A DNA stretch of 64,000 bases from the IMG/VR virus record IMGVR_UViG_3300008267_000017, positions 1 to 64,000 of that record; one strand, given 5' to 3'. Positions 25,201 to 43,975 of this stretch are shown piece after piece. The stretch comes from a virus (taxonomy: Duplodnaviria; Heunggongvirae; Uroviricota; Caudoviricetes). Under the pieces are notes generated by a model. It was given only the letters and a program-made list of their open reading frames with translations. It made no database searches and had not been told where the DNA came from. Each line of letters begins with the position of its first letter. Position 1 is the stretch's first letter. A program made the position numbers and the translations under genes.

Positions 25201-25812
25201 TTAGTCTGTAATTTCAACTGTGAAGTTATTTAAAGCTTCGATTACTTTAGGATGTATCATTCCTTCATACTTTATTGCGAGTTCTTTAGCAAGAGCTTCC
25301 TTGTAAACTTTGTAAGCTTGGAAGGCTTCTTCTGGAGTGTCGTAGAATCCTAGATGTTTACTGCAGCTTCTGCCATCACTTGCAGTTGCTCTGTACATCC
25401 CCTTCAATTTGTAGAAGTCTACACCTATTGGATGGCTGCCTCTGTCTCCTTTCCTTTTTGTCAAGAAAGTATTAACTTGCCTTGGAATAAAGAAGCTTGT
25501 ATCCTCTGAGTAAAGTTTATTTCCTTTGAGCACAACGTCCTTGTCCAATTGATAATCTTTTAACTTAAATCCTATCTGAGACTGACACCACTCTGCGAAA
25601 TATTGAAAGTTCTTAAAATTATCAGAAGCTTCGCAACCTATATAACTAGGATACCTTACATGGAGTTTCGCAGAGTAACACCTCTCCAGCATATTTTGCC
25701 ATAAGATGTATTCTTTCGTACGTTTTCTACCGATACTTCTAAGATGTTTCCCTTTTTCAGAAACTCCGACTCCTTGCACTAACCTCTTACCCATTCTTAT
25801 TCCTCTCCTCAA
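25201..25812 (-). CDS. homing-endonuclease-like protein, paralog B (degenerate HNH-like plus AP2-like, ends ...VEITD)
   Basis: QLDKDVVLKGNKLYS and C-terminal RGSHPIGVDF...GFYDTPEEAFQAYKVYKEALAKELA. Paralog of 3499-4065 and 38758-39732. Confidence 0.6.
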   Translation of the reverse strand: MRRGIRMGKRLVQGVGVSEKGKHLRSIGRKRTKEYILWQNMLERCYSAKLHVRYPSYIGCEASDNFKNFQYFAEWCQSQIGFKLKDYQLDKDVVLKGNKLYSEDTSFFIPRQVNTFLTKRKGDRGSHPIGVDFYKLKGMYRATASDGRSCSKHLGFYDTPEEAFQAYKVYKEALAKELAIKYEGMIHPKVIEALNNFTVEITD

Positions 25813-37534: not shown

Positions 37535-37909
37535 ATGAGTGACGTAGATAACAGTGTAGGAGAGATAGTAAGGACAGGAGTTCAGAGTAAGAAGAACTCT
37601 ATCACTATTCAAAAGCGATTGCTAAATAAGGAAAATAAACCTTCCATGGCTTACTTGGTATCAGTGAGAGATGACCCTACAGCAAGCAGAAAAGATAGGA
37701 TGGAAGCAGCGAAGTTTCTCATGACTATGCACATGGAGTCTATTAAAGTTGAGTCTGCTGAGAAAGCTCGGAATAAGGAGTTTGCTGCGAAGCATCATGA
37801 ATTGCTTTTAAGTATTCAACGTAATGGTGGTATTATTGTTGATGATAGTGATGAAGATGATGAAAGTCAACCACTCTTAGATTTTGAGAATATTGCAGAA
37901 GTTGACTGA
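37535..37909 (+). CDS. hypothetical protein, possible terminase small subunit
   Basis: First gene of the packaging module. 124 aa with an acidic C-terminus. No motif support. Confidence 0.3.
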   Translation: MSDVDNSVGEIVRTGVQSKKNSITIQKRLLNKENKPSMAYLVSVRDDPTASRKDRMEAAKFLMTMHMESIKVESAEKARNKEFAAKHHELLLSIQRNGGIIVDDSDEDDESQPLLDFENIAEVD

Positions 37910-38101: not shown

Positions 38102-38176
38102 GCATCCTTAGCTCAATGGTGGAGCGAGTGCCTTCCAAGCACAAGGTCGAGAGATCGGTACTCTCAGGATGCTCCA
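38102..38176 (+). tRNA. tRNA-Gly (anticodon UCC) with a non-canonical T-loop
   Basis: 7-bp acceptor stem with G1:C72 and C2:G71, discriminator U and encoded CCA. D-arm GCUC/GAGC. Anticodon loop CUUCCAA is identical to E. coli tRNA-Gly(UCC). T-stem GAGAG/CUCUC with loop AUCGGUA instead of UUCGAAU. Confidence 0.55.
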
Positions 38177-38351
38177 TTAGAATATTAAAACGACAATCCT
38201 CCACTGAGTCTCCTCCGTGTCCTCCTCCTTCACGGTTCTCCTATCAGTGTTGTAGGGTTGTCCTTTTAGTGTTTTAACAGTAGTGGTGAGAGGAGAAGAT
38301 ATGTTCTCCCGAGATAGCAGCAAGGTTAGTGTGGTGTGCTATCATTATGTG

Positions 38352-38380
38352 TTGACAGGGCTGTGTTATTACGTTACAAT
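38352..38380 (+). promoter_or_regulatory. sigma70-like promoter TTGACAGGG-17-TACAAT
   Basis: -35 at 38352-38357, -10 at 38375-38380. Confidence 0.45.
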
Positions 38381-38422
38381 TCTGTTTCACTATATTTTAG
38401 TAACAACCAAAAGGAGAAAATA

Positions 38423-38608
38423 ATGGAATTTGTAAACTTTCCAACATGTGTAGGTGATGGATGCATACATTGTAAAGGTGTGACTGACAACTTCATTCGT
38501 CAGGCTAGAGAGGTTCACGGAGATAAGTATGACTATAGCTTGACTAAGATTAGTTGTGCAGATGTTCAGATTCCTAAGCATGTTTTAGAAGTTATGCTTG
38601 CACAGTAA
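38423..38608 (+). CDS. Cys-rich small protein (start refined to MEFVNF)
   Basis: AAAAGGAGAAAATAATG RBS. CVGDGCIHCKG. Confidence 0.45.
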   Translation: MEFVNFPTCVGDGCIHCKGVTDNFIRQAREVHGDKYDYSLTKISCADVQIPKHVLEVMLAQ

Positions 38609-38757: not shown

Positions 38758-39732
38758 ATGGAAAAGAAAAGAGTACATTCAAATAAGCCGCAAATTAGTG
38801 TTGGAGATGTTTTCAAGACGAATTGTTATGGAGATGTGGAAGTAATTGAATACCTTAACGCGAATAAAATCAAGGTGAAGTTCATAGTTGACGGATACCA
38901 GAGATACACAACATCTGGTAATTTGCAAAAGGGTAAAGTGAAGAATCCCACTATACCAACTATTGAACATGCAGGAAGAGCATCGAAGAATGTTTGTATT
39001 GGTGGAATCTATAAGAACACAAATGGATTGCAATTCAAAGTAGTTGAATACACAGATGCAAAGAATGTTAAAGTGGAGTTTGAGTCTGGTTATATTACAA
39101 ACTGTTCTCTTCAACGAGTTCGTGACGGAGGAATATCTGATAACTTCTCTCCATCCAGATTTCAAGGGTATTTAGGTACTTTAGTAGGTGTTGAAGTTAA
39201 AAACGTGGCAAAGACTAAGGAGCATATTCACTGGTCAAGTATGTTAGCAAGATGTTTCTGTGAGGAATACCAAGATAAGTATCCGACTTATAAAGGTACA
39301 ACTATCTGTGAAGAGTGGTTAAATTTTACAGTTTTTGCTAAATGGTGTAGAGAACAGCCTGAGTTTTTGTTGGGACATAGAGTTTTTCTGGATAAGGATA
39401 TTCTAAATAAAGGAAACAAGCACTATAGTCCAAATACATGTACTTTTGTCCCTCACGCTGTTAATACTTTGTTTACTAAAGCGGATGCAAGCAGAGGTAA
39501 GTATCCTATAGGGGTGTCTTATTGCACAACTCGAAATACAATAACTGCCTGTGTCCGCATTGATAAGCGAACTAAATACTTGGGCAGGTTTGCAAATGCC
39601 ACTGATGCATTCTACGCATACAAGAAAGCAAAAGAGGTTTATATTAAAGAACTTGCTGAGAAATTTAAAACAGTTATTTCAAACGAGTGTTACTTAGCAA
39701 TGTACAGGTATGAGGTTGAAATAACAGATTAG
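38758..39732 (+). CDS. homing-endonuclease-like protein, paralog C (N-terminal extension, degenerate HNH-like, AP2-like, ends ...VEITD), immediately upstream of the terminase gene
   Basis: FLDKDILNKGNKHYS and C-terminal RGKYPIGVSY...LGRFANATDAFYAYKKAKEVYIKELA. GAGGAGCAAAATATG RBS. Confidence 0.6.
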   Translation: MEKKRVHSNKPQISVGDVFKTNCYGDVEVIEYLNANKIKVKFIVDGYQRYTTSGNLQKGKVKNPTIPTIEHAGRASKNVCIGGIYKNTNGLQFKVVEYTDAKNVKVEFESGYITNCSLQRVRDGGISDNFSPSRFQGYLGTLVGVEVKNVAKTKEHIHWSSMLARCFCEEYQDKYPTYKGTTICEEWLNFTVFAKWCREQPEFLLGHRVFLDKDILNKGNKHYSPNTCTFVPHAVNTLFTKADASRGKYPIGVSYCTTRNTITACVRIDKRTKYLGRFANATDAFYAYKKAKEVYIKELAEKFKTVISNECYLAMYRYEVEITD

Positions 39733-39739
39733 AGGTAAA

Positions 39740-40120
39740 ATGGTTAAAAAAGAAAGAGTAAAGTTCCAGCCGTGTAGTGAAAAACAACGGCTGATTCTCA
39801 TGGATAACACTACAGATGTCATCCTCATAGGAGGCGGAGCTGGGGGAGGCAAGTCTCGGATTTGTTTAACAAAGAACTTAGATGGCATTAAAGATTCAAA
39901 GTTCAGGTGTGTAATCCTTCGGCGCTTTGAGCCAGAGCTTAAAAAACAAGGTGGATTGATTGATGAGTCCAAAAACGTCTATCCGCACTTTACAAAAATA
40001 CCTTATAAAAGTCAACAAAAATTATGGGAATTTCCATCTGGAGCAACCATAGGATTTTCTGCAATTTCTTGCGATGACGACCTTGGAAGTTGGCAAGGTA
40101 GTCAATTAACGCGTAAATAA
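39740..40120 (+). CDS. terminase large subunit, exon 1 (ATPase N-terminus with Walker A)
   Basis: Walker A ILIGGGAGGGKS preceded by a Q-motif-like region. The ORF ends about 90 aa after Walker A, where Walker B is expected. Confidence 0.8.
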   Translation: MVKKERVKFQPCSEKQRLILMDNTTDVILIGGGAGGGKSRICLTKNLDGIKDSKFRCVILRRFEPELKKQGGLIDESKNVYPHFTKIPYKSQQKLWEFPSGATIGFSAISCDDDLGSWQGSQLTRK

Positions 40121-40377
40121 TGCGCCTTTATTTAGAAATAGGTAAAGCAAACTCATTGAATTCAGGGGAAGCGTAGAACACGTTATCCTGATCTAAGCCT
40201 AAATACAACTCAGAAATAAAGTATGAGAAGAAAGTGTTAGGAAAGAGCAACGACTATCCTGAAAGGGAGTACACTCAAGTGAGTGGAAGCGGTGAGAATC
40301 CTCTATAGAGGATTATGATATAGTCTGATCTGTATAGGGATATACAGCGGCTTGAATAAAGCGGAGTAAGAGTAACG
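40115..40377 (+). mobile_element. ORF-less group I intron (about 263 nt) in the terminase large subunit gene, inserted just before the Walker B codons
   Basis: R element CAACGACUAU at 40248-40257 and S element GAUAUAGUCUG at 40317-40327 form P7 (GACUAU/AUAGUC). P8 hairpin AAUCCUCUA/UAGAGGAUU. Candidate P1 with the U40114.G40122 wobble at the 5' splice site. Omega-G at 40377 gives an in-frame join ...GSQLTR-NLFEHLILIDEA. Exact junctions are tentative. Confidence 0.65.
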
Positions 40378-41541
40378 AACTTATTTGAACACTTGATTTT
40401 AATTGACGAAGCTGCAGATAAGTGGACTGAGAAACAAGCCTTGTTTTTGCAGTCTCGATTGCGTACAGTTGGCTCTGATATCCACCCACAACTGGTTATG
40501 TCCTGCAACCCAGACCCTAATAGTTTCTTATTTGAATGGGTTAAGTTCTGTCTTGATGAAGACACAGGAGTTCCAAAAGAAGGTACTGAGCATCTTATTA
40601 GATGGTTCTGTGTAGAGGATAACAAAGCTAAATGGGCTGGTAGTCCAGAAGAGTGCTATGAATTATATGGTGCTCCTAAGAATCTAATTTATGCTCATGG
40701 AATGACAGAAGAACAAATGAATACCTTCTCTAAAGAAGAGAAGATGAGGTTATTCATGCCTAAGTCATTTAGGTTTATCCCAACTGGTGTTTTTGACAAC
40801 CCTTATCTACTTCCCCCGAAGAATACAAGTTACCTAGCTTCCTTATTATCTCAACCTCATGTGAATCAGTTAAAATTTCTTCACGGAAGTTGGACTGCAA
40901 GAGAAGAAGGTAGTATGTACTTCGACAGAAAATGGGTGGAGATTGTTGACTTCCCTCCTGTCAATGCTACAGCTAGGGTTAGAGCTTGGGACTTTGCTTC
41001 AGAAGAGAAGACAAAAACTAACAATCCCGATTGGACAGCAGGTGTAAAAATGTCTAGGGATAGAAATGGTATTTACTATATCGAAGATGTTGTCCGTATC
41101 CAAGCTCGTACTGATAAAGTATTAAAAACTGTTATTGAAACAGCTAAATCTGACGGACTGAACGAATGTGATGTGTGTATTCCAGTTGACCCTGCAGCAG
41201 CAGGTAAAACAGCAGCGCACTTCTATCTTAAAGTGTTGGCAGAGAATGGAGTGGCAGCAAAGAAAGCACAATCTTCTGGACACAGTAGCAAACTTACACG
41301 TTTCAAACCATTCTGTTCTTTAGCAGAAAGTGGCAGCGTGAAAGTAGTTAGAGGTGAATGGAATGATGCATTCTTTGCAGAACTTGAAGCCTTCTCTGGT
41401 GAAAAAGCAATCGAGAGAACTCAAAAGAATGACCAAGTGGATGCTACCTCAGATAGTTTTAACCTTCTAGCAAGACAGTTACAACTGCCTACATTTAGTA
41501 TTCCTAGCCTCACTAAAGCTTCTCCAGTACCAACAATATAA
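40378..41541 (+). CDS. terminase large subunit, exon 2 (Walker B LILIDEA and C-terminal nuclease domain)
   Basis: Walker B hhhhDE LILIDEAADKW. The frame is open from 40360. The C-terminal region is consistent with an RNaseH-like terminase nuclease. Confidence 0.8.
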   Translation, partial: NLFEHLILIDEAADKWTEKQALFLQSRLRTVGSDIHPQLVMSCNPDPNSFLFEWVKFCLDEDTGVPKEGTEHLIRWFCVEDNKAKWAGSPEECYELYGAPKNLIYAHGMTEEQMNTFSKEEKMRLFMPKSFRFIPTGVFDNPYLLPPKNTSYLASLLSQPHVNQLKFLHGSWTAREEGSMYFDRKWVEIVDFPPVNATARVRAWDFASEEKTKTNNPDWTAGVKMSRDRNGIYYIEDVVRIQARTDKVLKTVIETAKSDGLNECDVCIPVDPAAAGKTAAHFYLKVLAENGVAAKKAQSSGHSSKLTRFKPFCSLAESGSVKVVRGEWNDAFFAELEAFSGEKAIERTQKNDQVDATSDSFNLLARQLQLPTFSIPSLTKASPVPTI

Positions 41542-43168: not shown

Positions 43169-43975
43169 ATGGCATTTGTTTACTGGATTCATTTACCAGA
43201 ACATACTGACGTTACAAAAGACGGATATGTGGGCTTCACTAGTAAGACTGTTGAATCAAGATTTAAGCAACACAGAGATGACTCTATCAGAGAGAAGTAC
43301 AAGAATCTACCGATATACAATGCTATGAATAAGTATGGAAATTTGTTAGTAGTGGAGACTCTGGTAGAGGGGTCTAATGAGTATTGTCTCATGATTGAAA
43401 ACAAGTTACGTCCTGAAGTCAAGATTGGTTGGAATATAAAAATCGGTGGTGATTTTGGTTCACTAGGGGTAAAAGCAAGTGAAGAGACTAAGTTGAAGAT
43501 GTCTGAAACTCGCAGAGGAGAGTCTAACGGCTTTTACGGCAAAGAACACTCTGAGGAAACAAAGCAAAAACTACGAGAAATTAATTTAGGTAAGAAGGCT
43601 TCTGAAGAAACCAAAAATAAATTGTCTGCAATGAGGAAGGGTAAGAAAAGGAATTTAAGCCCTGAGCAGCGAAAGAAGATGAGTGACAGGTCTAAGGCTC
43701 AAGTTATGTCAGAATCTGCAAAACTCAAGATGTCTATTAGTAAGACAGGTATTTATGTAGCTTGGAGGAGTTGTGCAGCTACAGATATATGGCTGTGTGC
43801 AAAAGATGTTTATGAGTATTTAGAAGAGAACCCTTCTAACGGTAGACATAAGACAGCACATCATTTCAAAGTAACTCCTAATCAAATTAAAACTATACAC
43901 AAGAAAATACGATCAGGTTGGAACCCAAACGAAGATCAAGAATACCTTTCTTGGTTAGAAGAAAAGAAAGGATAA
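43169..43975 (+). CDS. GIY-YIG homing endonuclease with NUMOD3 repeats, inserted between portal and prohead protease
   Basis: GIY-YIG core FVYWIHLPEH...DGYVGFTSKTVESRFKQH. Three NUMOD3-like repeats: SEETKLKMSETRRG, SEETKQKLREINLGKK and SEETKNKLSAMRKGKK. Confidence 0.8.
   Translation: MAFVYWIHLPEHTDVTKDGYVGFTSKTVESRFKQHRDDSIREKYKNLPIYNAMNKYGNLLVVETLVEGSNEYCLMIENKLRPEVKIGWNIKIGGDFGSLGVKASEETKLKMSETRRGESNGFYGKEHSEETKQKLREINLGKKASEETKNKLSAMRKGKKRNLSPEQRKKMSDRSKAQVMSESAKLKMSISKTGIYVAWRSCAATDIWLCAKDVYEYLEENPSNGRHKTAHHFKVTPNQIKTIHKKIRSGWNPNEDQEYLSWLEEKKG

Follow-up and report, generated by a model that had tools for sequence, protein, structure and literature searches.

The large terminase gene (terL) of an uncultured virus of the Caudoviricetes is interrupted by a group I intron that contains no open reading frame (ORF) and occupies positions 40115–40395 of the analyzed DNA (IMG/VR record IMGVR_UViG_3300008267_000017, positions 1 to 64,000; these 64,000 nucleotides are called the window below, and all coordinates refer to them). 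We estimate the probability that this is a genuine ORF-less phage intron of the IA2 (T4 td-like) type, the proposed splicing included, at roughly 0.9. Its fold, its boundaries and the restoration of the terL ORF are demonstrated by the data presented here. The Rfam group I family RF00028 matches positions 40105–40347 along the full model (1–253 of 253) with 83.3 bits (gathering score 50) and an E-value of 1.1e-19, hence the intron is real and far beyond chance expectation; this is the only group I intron match in a scan of the whole window. An earlier reading of the letters alone (the original prediction), which had suggested this very scan, correctly recognized the R and S elements (CAACGACTAT at 40249–40258 and GATATAGTCTG at 40317–40327), which pair as P7 (40252–56/40321–25), as well as the P8 hairpin (AATCCTCTATAGAGGATT at 40297–40314), which is now seen to covary. 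It had also described the intron as ORF-less, and indeed the ORF list contains no sense-strand ORF of at least 30 amino acids (aa), and no plausible ORF, inside 40115–40395; as no homing endonuclease ORF lies inside the intron, it does not belong to the endonuclease-encoding, autonomously mobile introns.

The two flanking ORFs are likewise as originally described. The ORF at 39740–40120 (+) is the N-terminus of TerL with the Walker A motif, ended by the TAA, and the second ORF, starting from 40393, opens with LILIDEA (Walker B) and continues with the Terminase_6C nuclease domain (Pfam). In a profile search, exon 1 corresponds to positions 147–266 of PHROG 979 (terminase), and exon 2, to the contiguous positions 267–614. 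With Walker A on exon 1 and Walker B on exon 2, one ATPase fold is divided between the exons. Inspection of the sequence ahead of position 40396 reveals neither an ATG nor a Shine–Dalgarno sequence, and automatic gene callers break terL into two or three fragments. Hundreds of relatives of the spliced protein, mostly of about 505 aa and uninterrupted, have been found in a large protein collection; the best 120 of them constitute the homologue alignment, and about 115 span the junction region. With the terL region as query, megablast against deposited phages yields no close genome, just short matches of the intron core in unrelated phages. The gene directly following terL encodes a Mu-type portal, and the surrounding packaging/head module is intact.

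The 5′ splice site follows U40114, as had been proposed, with the U40114·G40122 wobble of P1 recovered both by RNAalifold and in the minimum free energy (MFE) fold, and with three further G–C pairs. The 3′ splice site had been placed at G40377, and this part of the original prediction has to be moved 18 nt downstream, to G40395. In all of the approximately 115 spanning homologues GSQLTR is directly followed by I/V/A-L/M-I/V-D-E, and splicing at G40395 reproduces this arrangement, joining CGT/ATT (R125/I126; here and below the slash marks the junction) to give GSQLTR/ILIDEA and a TerL of 506 aa. The host reading frame is thereby restored, collinear with the uninterrupted homologues, and the expected ligated exon junction reads ...ACGCGT/ATTTTAATT. 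The introns occupying the same site in related loci agree, as in five of five cases (the window and loci L012, L005, L010 and L051) the terminal G immediately precedes an AT(T/A) codon for Ile. Finally, the terminal ...UGAACAUAAUG of the td intron of a T4-like phage aligns with ...UGAACA-CUUG of the window, so that the last G of td falls on G40395; we take the td 3′ splice site to lie directly after that G, in agreement with the annotated frame of td exon 2.

An intron of 40115–40377 with omega-G at 40377 would produce the junction ...QLTRNLFEHLILIDEA instead of ...QLTR/ILIDEA, adding six residues, NLFEHL, before Walker B. This G is in frame in the window, where 18 nt separate it from exon 2, and it is conserved in all relatives. 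Nevertheless, we consider this variant extremely unlikely. The six residues are found in none of the approximately 115 uninterrupted homologues; the corresponding G is followed by a tail of 19 nt in L012, L005 and L010 (the three loci in which the tail was measured, L051 being left out) and of 18 nt only in the window, so splicing there would cause a frameshift in these three loci; and G40377 is a loop nucleotide of hairpin P9.2, within the conserved UAACGA, in agreement with td, where the matching nucleotide is also an internal loop G. P9.2 is 100% paired in the nine related introns considered below and has compensatory changes in five of seven pairs. Hence the homologue alignment, the tails of orthologous introns, the P9.2 loop and the td alignment all place the 3′ splice site at G40395, and G40377 had been selected because it is in frame by chance.

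The secondary structure was derived with RNAalifold from the first four introns at the window's site, called site B, and separately as a single-sequence MFE fold, which yields the same helices (z = –3.28). Pairs were counted on a MAFFT alignment of nine introns, in which four from terL site B are combined with five related ones that interrupt other genes, P7 (GACUA/UAGUC) having been added by hand before counting as the pseudoknot partner of P3. The 72 pairs in 15 helices are formed in 96.1% of cells, compared to 36–42% when the partners are slid by 1–3 columns; 38 of the 72 pairs show compensatory (both-side) changes, compared to 9–13 in the slid controls, and none of 500 shuffles reaches any of the observed pairing measures. 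Covariation is seen in P2, P5, P6, P6a, P7.1, P7.2, P8, P9, P9.1 and P9.2, with compensatory changes, for example, in three of four pairs of P7.1, five of five pairs of P7.2 and five of seven pairs of P9 (other counts are given in Table 1), while in P5 a G–C pair is changed to A–U in L012. The support for P3, P4 and P7 comes from their invariance, which fits the catalytic core. Thus, the P3–P9 fold around the R and S elements, whose failure the original prediction had named as evidence to the contrary, is formed, and its pairs are retained across the nine introns. P1 is the same in all five site-B alleles, and the J1 loop AAAUAAU (40115–21) carries the P10 strand, P10 of the window consisting of 4 bp (AAAU/AUUU). 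The distal P6 loop is variable; the same position holds HNH ORFs in relatives L044 and L050. The additional helices P7.1 and P7.2 are a signature of subgroup IA and, together with the similarity to td, suggest an IA2-like placement among phage introns, which agrees with the second half of the initial guess (IC3 or IA2). Subgroup IA2 is itself heterogeneous (PMC11878797).

Table 1. Features of the terL locus in the window.
Feature	Position	Strand	Details
Free-standing HNH-AP2-like gene	38758–39732	+	324 aa; ends 8 nt ahead of terL; candidate trans-acting homing endonuclease
terL exon 1	39740–40114	+	125 codons; Walker A GGGAGGGKS; last codon CGT (R125)
Upstream exon tract, 27 nt	40088–40114	+	Same in all five carriers of the site-B intron
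Group I intron, ORF-less, IA2-like	40115–40395	+	281 nt; Rfam, homologue alignment, orthologous introns, td alignment, covariation
In-frame TAA	40118–40120	+	One codon beyond the 5′ splice site
P1	40111–40125	+	Exon GCGU 40111–14/intron GCGC 40122–25; RNAalifold, MFE
P2 hairpin	40126–40147	+	9 bp; GAAA (GNRA) loop; compensatory changes in 5/9 pairs
P3, 5′ strand	40152–40158	+	Partner 40290–40296; 100% paired in nine introns, nearly invariant
P4 enclosing P5	40162–40191	+	P4 40162–67/40186–91, invariant; P5 40171–74/40180–83
P6 and P6a	40192–40246	+	P6 40192–94/40244–46; P6a 40198–202/40237–41; compensatory changes in 5/5 P6a pairs
P7, 5′ strand GACUA (in R element)	40252–40256	+	5 pairs, invariant, 100% paired; pseudoknot with P3
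P7.1 and P7.2	40257–40285	+	P7.1 40257–60/40265–68, GAAA loop; P7.2 40272–76/40281–85
P3, 3′ strand	40290–40296	+	RNAalifold, pair counts
P8 hairpin	40297–40314	+	Compensatory changes in 4/6 pairs
P7, 3′ strand UAGUC (S element)	40321–40325	+	Partner 40252–40256
P9, P9.1 and P9.2	40330–40386	+	P9 40330–36/40341–47, GGGA loop; P9.1 40350–53/40359–62; P9.2 40364–70/40380–86
Omega-G, last intron nucleotide	40395	+	Preceded by conserved UGAACA(N3–4)
terL exon 2	40396–41541	+	Starts with ATT (I126); Walker B ILIDE; nuclease domain; stop included

A tblastn search of both exons against all fetched loci shows that this terL family has introns at two distinct sites. Site B is occupied in the window, L012, L005, L010 and L051, all five copies being 250–281 nt long; the introns with the same boundaries in L005 and L010 have Rfam scores of 79 to 92 bits, and the copies in L012 and L051 are 81–83% identical to that of the window. 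The other one, site A, lies within Walker A near residue 33 and holds an intron in L005, L006, L011, L012, L024, L029, L030, L033, L038, L052 and L055, and the corresponding region of the window (39830–39850) is uninterrupted. The 3′ half of the site-A introns resembles the site-B intron, and their P3–P6 half (CUCUCUAGUAGACAAU) presumably resembles td. The site-A intron of L030 apparently lies a few codons downstream of the others. In addition, inteins of 148–345 aa, some of which contain LAGLIDADG or Hom_end domains, interrupt the P-loop of Walker A directly after residue 38 (P0052, P0075, P0084, P0090, P0095, P0100, P0101, P0115). The ATPase motifs of one terL family are therefore targeted at three sites, two of them by introns and the third by inteins.

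The distribution of the site-B intron is patchy: it is present in five and absent from more than 20 related terL loci, and among those lacking it are the close relatives L013 and L011 (88–97% aa identity; 88–96% for L013). Intron-less alleles differ from the 27-nt upstream tract shared by the carriers at 4 to 8 synonymous positions. When identity is binned for the first four carriers, it is 97–100% at –30..0 and 83% at 0..+30, with the background of about 72–73% beyond. Moreover, the same intron core is found, with other P1/P2, inside unrelated genes of other metagenomic phages. The patchy presence, the shared tract and the occurrence of the core in unrelated genes argue for homing at the DNA level and not for vertical descent alone; they indicate such homing as the route into terL or, at the minimum, a site-specific insertion accompanied by co-conversion. 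As no endonuclease is encoded in it, the intron would have relied on one acting in trans, or on one lost since.

Related intron cores are also found in several named phages, namely, in the gap of a split “N4-like RNA polymerase” gene of Acinetobacter phage vB_MZM_4AB-P (L001), between split hypothetical genes of Pseudoalteromonas phage HP1 (L002, two Rfam matches) and in the gap of a split DNA polymerase gene of Aeromonas phage PT2 (L004). The introns of these three phages appear to be unannotated in the deposited records.

We infer the splicing chemistry from family membership. In the pre-mRNA, exon GCGU would pair with the intron guide GCGC as P1, with the U40114·G40122 wobble, and the core would fold from P3 to P9 with the P3/P7 pseudoknot. 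Exogenous guanosine bound in P7 would then attack after U40114, omega-G40395 would dock, and the 3′-OH of exon 1 would attack after G40395, joining CGT/ATT. The TAA one codon into the intron would halt ribosomes ahead of the ribozyme core; five of five orthologous introns have an in-frame stop, located 0 to 9 codons downstream of the 5′ splice site. Several points weigh against this interpretation. Splicing is deduced from sequence, and certain phage group I introns require host factors and do not splice in vitro (PMC11878797). P1 is short, only 4 bp, and P10 is weak and variable (2 to 5 bp), for which reason P10 was dropped as an independent criterion of the 3′ splice site. P1, P3, P4 and P7 do not vary, and covariation thus speaks neither for nor against them. 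As to the arrival of the intron, a preference for the target site or constraint at the RNA level could account, besides co-conversion, for part of the shared exon tract.

An alternative would be a decayed relic that splices no longer, terL being then a pseudogene or encoding two polypeptides; ORF-less introns can be heading for loss, and gene callers do annotate two ORFs. However, the core is invariant, and compensatory pairing is seen in every peripheral helix among five terL alleles diverged by up to about 30%; pairing retained through compensatory changes implies purifying selection on the fold. Against a relic speak also the absence of an ATG and a Shine–Dalgarno sequence noted above, the splitting of the Walker A and Walker B motifs of a single ATPase across the exons, and the fact that terL is essential and the packaging/head module around it intact. 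A relic thus seems very unlikely, and an intron capable of splicing remains the preferred interpretation.

A 7-bp complementarity is found between exon 1 (caauuaa, 40103–40109) and exon 2 (uuaauug, 40399–40405), paired both by RNAalifold and in the MFE fold and present in intron-bearing alleles only. It could aid the alignment of exons, or could be a mere part of the co-converted tract.

The free-standing gene immediately upstream of terL is of interest with respect to mobility. Its 324-aa product matches PHROG families labelled HNH endonuclease (953, 374 and 2081), and sequence searches against Pfam and PDB yield nothing meaningful. The AlphaFold2 model built from the single sequence is unusable (pLDDT 35), and we used the alignment-based one (pLDDT 90), in which a ββα-Me-like domain is predicted to be flanked by AP2 and Tudor-like domains. 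The alignment of 54 sequences of this family has the conserved motif LDKDIL..N.K..Y.P..C.FVP...N and no invariant His. Nuclease activity of the protein is therefore putative, though plausible. Where the orthologue is at least 80% identical, terL carries just the site-B intron in the window and L051, both introns in L012, just the site-A intron in L052 and none in L053; of the more distant orthologues, that of L054 lies beside an uninterrupted terL, and that of L055, beside a terL with the site-A intron only. L005, on the contrary, has both introns and lacks the HNH-AP2-like gene. A strict tie of the site-B intron to the endonuclease gene was considered and failed on the five fetched orthologue contexts. 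Nor does the intron consistently protect the genomes that carry the endonuclease gene, since L052, L053, L054 and L055 lack it at site B, and L053 and L054 are intron-less altogether; these genomes may be protected by substitutions in the target site.

Two scenarios of mobilization can be weighed against these data. In the one, the protein encoded at 38758–39732 cuts intron-less terL at or near site B, the intron spreads via repair and, by dividing the target, shields its own genome from cleavage. This collaborative homing in trans agrees with the location of the gene, about 380 nt from the intron, with the predicted AP2 and ββα-Me-like fold, with the presence of the site-B intron in three of the five carriers of close orthologues, and with the precedents of psbA/F-CphI and ΦI gene 5 (PMC3984707). 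Further, endonuclease-type genes of three PHROG families are neighbors of terL far more often where introns are present (10 of 13 intron-bearing loci, compared to 3 of 13 loci lacking such a gene); as the loci were ascertained in biased ways, this association is suggestive only. On the other hand, orthologues reside beside terL genes lacking the site-B intron, two of them fully intron-less, and hence collaborative homing is just a possibility; L005 has the intron and no such gene, the enzyme family lacks an invariant His, and the tract of co-conversion, about 27 nt, falls short of the endonuclease gene. Overall, we consider this scenario rather unlikely.

In the other scenario, which we regard as a tentative possibility with somewhat less than even chances, the intron once held its own endonuclease ORF in P6, homed, and then lost the ORF, so that it is now an immobile, vertically inherited passenger. 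It agrees with the HNH ORFs that introns of the same lineage hold in the P6 loop in L044 and L050 and with distal P6 being the region most variable in length among the five terL copies, and the short symmetric shared tract fits a break at the insertion site itself. Still, an ORF-bearing copy is found at site B in none of the five alleles, and the 34-nt distal loop of P6 retains no recognizable ORF remnant. A more far-reaching version of homing in trans, where the intron and the HNH-AP2-like gene form a collaborative pair, the endonuclease works without the canonical His, and combinations of such elements decide which packaging genes survive in co-infection, looks distinctly improbable. If true, the pair would be the third documented collaborative case after psbA/F-CphI and ΦI gene 5, acting in a terminase family whose ATPase motifs are the point of convergence of two intron sites and one intein site.

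Other elements of this kind are seen in the window and its relatives. The window holds three free-standing endonuclease-like genes, at 25201–25812 (–), 38758–39732 (+) and 43169–43975 (+), two of which belong to PHROG 953. The third, of PHROG 314 (“homing endonuclease”), separates the portal gene from the head protease gene; in L006 and L009 these two are direct neighbors. A tRNA-Gly gene (anticodon UCC; 38102–38176, +) is located between the putative small terminase gene (37535–37909) and the endonuclease-like gene. Between the tRNA gene and the HNH-like gene there is an ORF of 90 aa (38336–38608, +) that has no PHROG or Pfam match; its motif HGDKYDYS resembles repeats of the PHROG 681/4605 endonucleases encoded upstream of terL in L038 and L034, and the ORF may be a remnant of an older endonuclease gene.

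These observations do not overturn the current understanding, and their significance is modest. For annotation, they demonstrate that gene callers fragment an essential terminase and that guessing the splice site by reading frame adds a spurious six-residue insert, while the junction anchored in homologues yields the correct TerL of 506 aa. They also add one more well-supported case of IA2-type introns colonizing packaging ATPases of phages at their most conserved motifs. The five site-B copies, the second intron site, the inteins and the free-standing endonuclease genes form a compact natural set for studying trans-mobilization of ORF-less introns.

Among known introns, that of the T4 gene td (thymidylate synthase), of subgroup IA2, is one of the closest. 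Both introns reside in a gene of a lytic phage and are collinear through P7, P7.1, P7.2, P3′, P8, P9, P9.1 and P9.2, sharing the UUAACGA loop, the terminal UGAACA(N3–4)G and an in-frame stop soon after the 5′ splice site. They are about 74% identical along 143 nt, in the 3′ half only. The host genes and insertion sites differ, the P3–P6 half shows no blastn similarity (the match covers query positions 125–278 only), and the td intron carries the ORF of I-TevI (GIY-YIG) in its P6 region, whereas the intron of the window carries none. More generally, the 3′ half of the window's intron is approximately 70–82% identical to introns in 459 deposited phage genomes. The introns of L042, L044–L048 and L050 have a core 74–86% identical from P3 to the 3′ end and the same helices and loops, but differ in the P1/P2 guide and in the host gene, and, in L044 and L050, by the HNH ORFs in P6. 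In L042, L046, L047 and L048 this intron lineage interrupts a gene at SNLC/SEI, a ribonucleotide-reductase-like active-site motif; in L044, L045 and L050 it lies in other genes.

Introns in terminase genes had been called uncommon in the original prediction, and this needs qualifying, as they are documented in several phage groups. Group I introns, mostly IA2/IA3-like, are present in terL of 5 of 52 Bastillevirinae, some genes having two or three, and splicing of the SIOphi TerL intron has been demonstrated in vitro and in vivo (PMC11878797); the Twort-like phages are another case of group I introns in terL (PMC5618024). These introns, likened here by description and not by sequence, are similar to ours in being IA-type and in occurring at several sites per gene, the terL family of the window having two. 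They differ in that their carriers are myoviruses of Bacillus and Staphylococcus, with another terminase family and host range, while the window comes from an uncultured phage of about 86–90 kb with a Mu-type portal. Besides, a nuclease is encoded by 32 of 45 Bastillevirinae introns (PMC11878797), and by none in the window.

Collaborative homing has been described, with terminases among the typical targets (PMC3984707). Its precedents, according to that review, are the psbA intron of cyanophage S-PM2 with F-CphI, and the gene 5 intron of phage ΦI with a free-standing endonuclease (Zeng 2009; Bonocora and Shub 2009; PMC3984707). For both pairs, cleavage of the insertion site in its intron-less form by the enzyme has been demonstrated, whereas the parallel with the window is at the level of genes; besides, the enzyme family of the window has no conserved His, and its orthologues coexist with intron-less terL. 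Taken by itself, the intron is of a type already known in phages, and it resides in a gene class known as an intron host.

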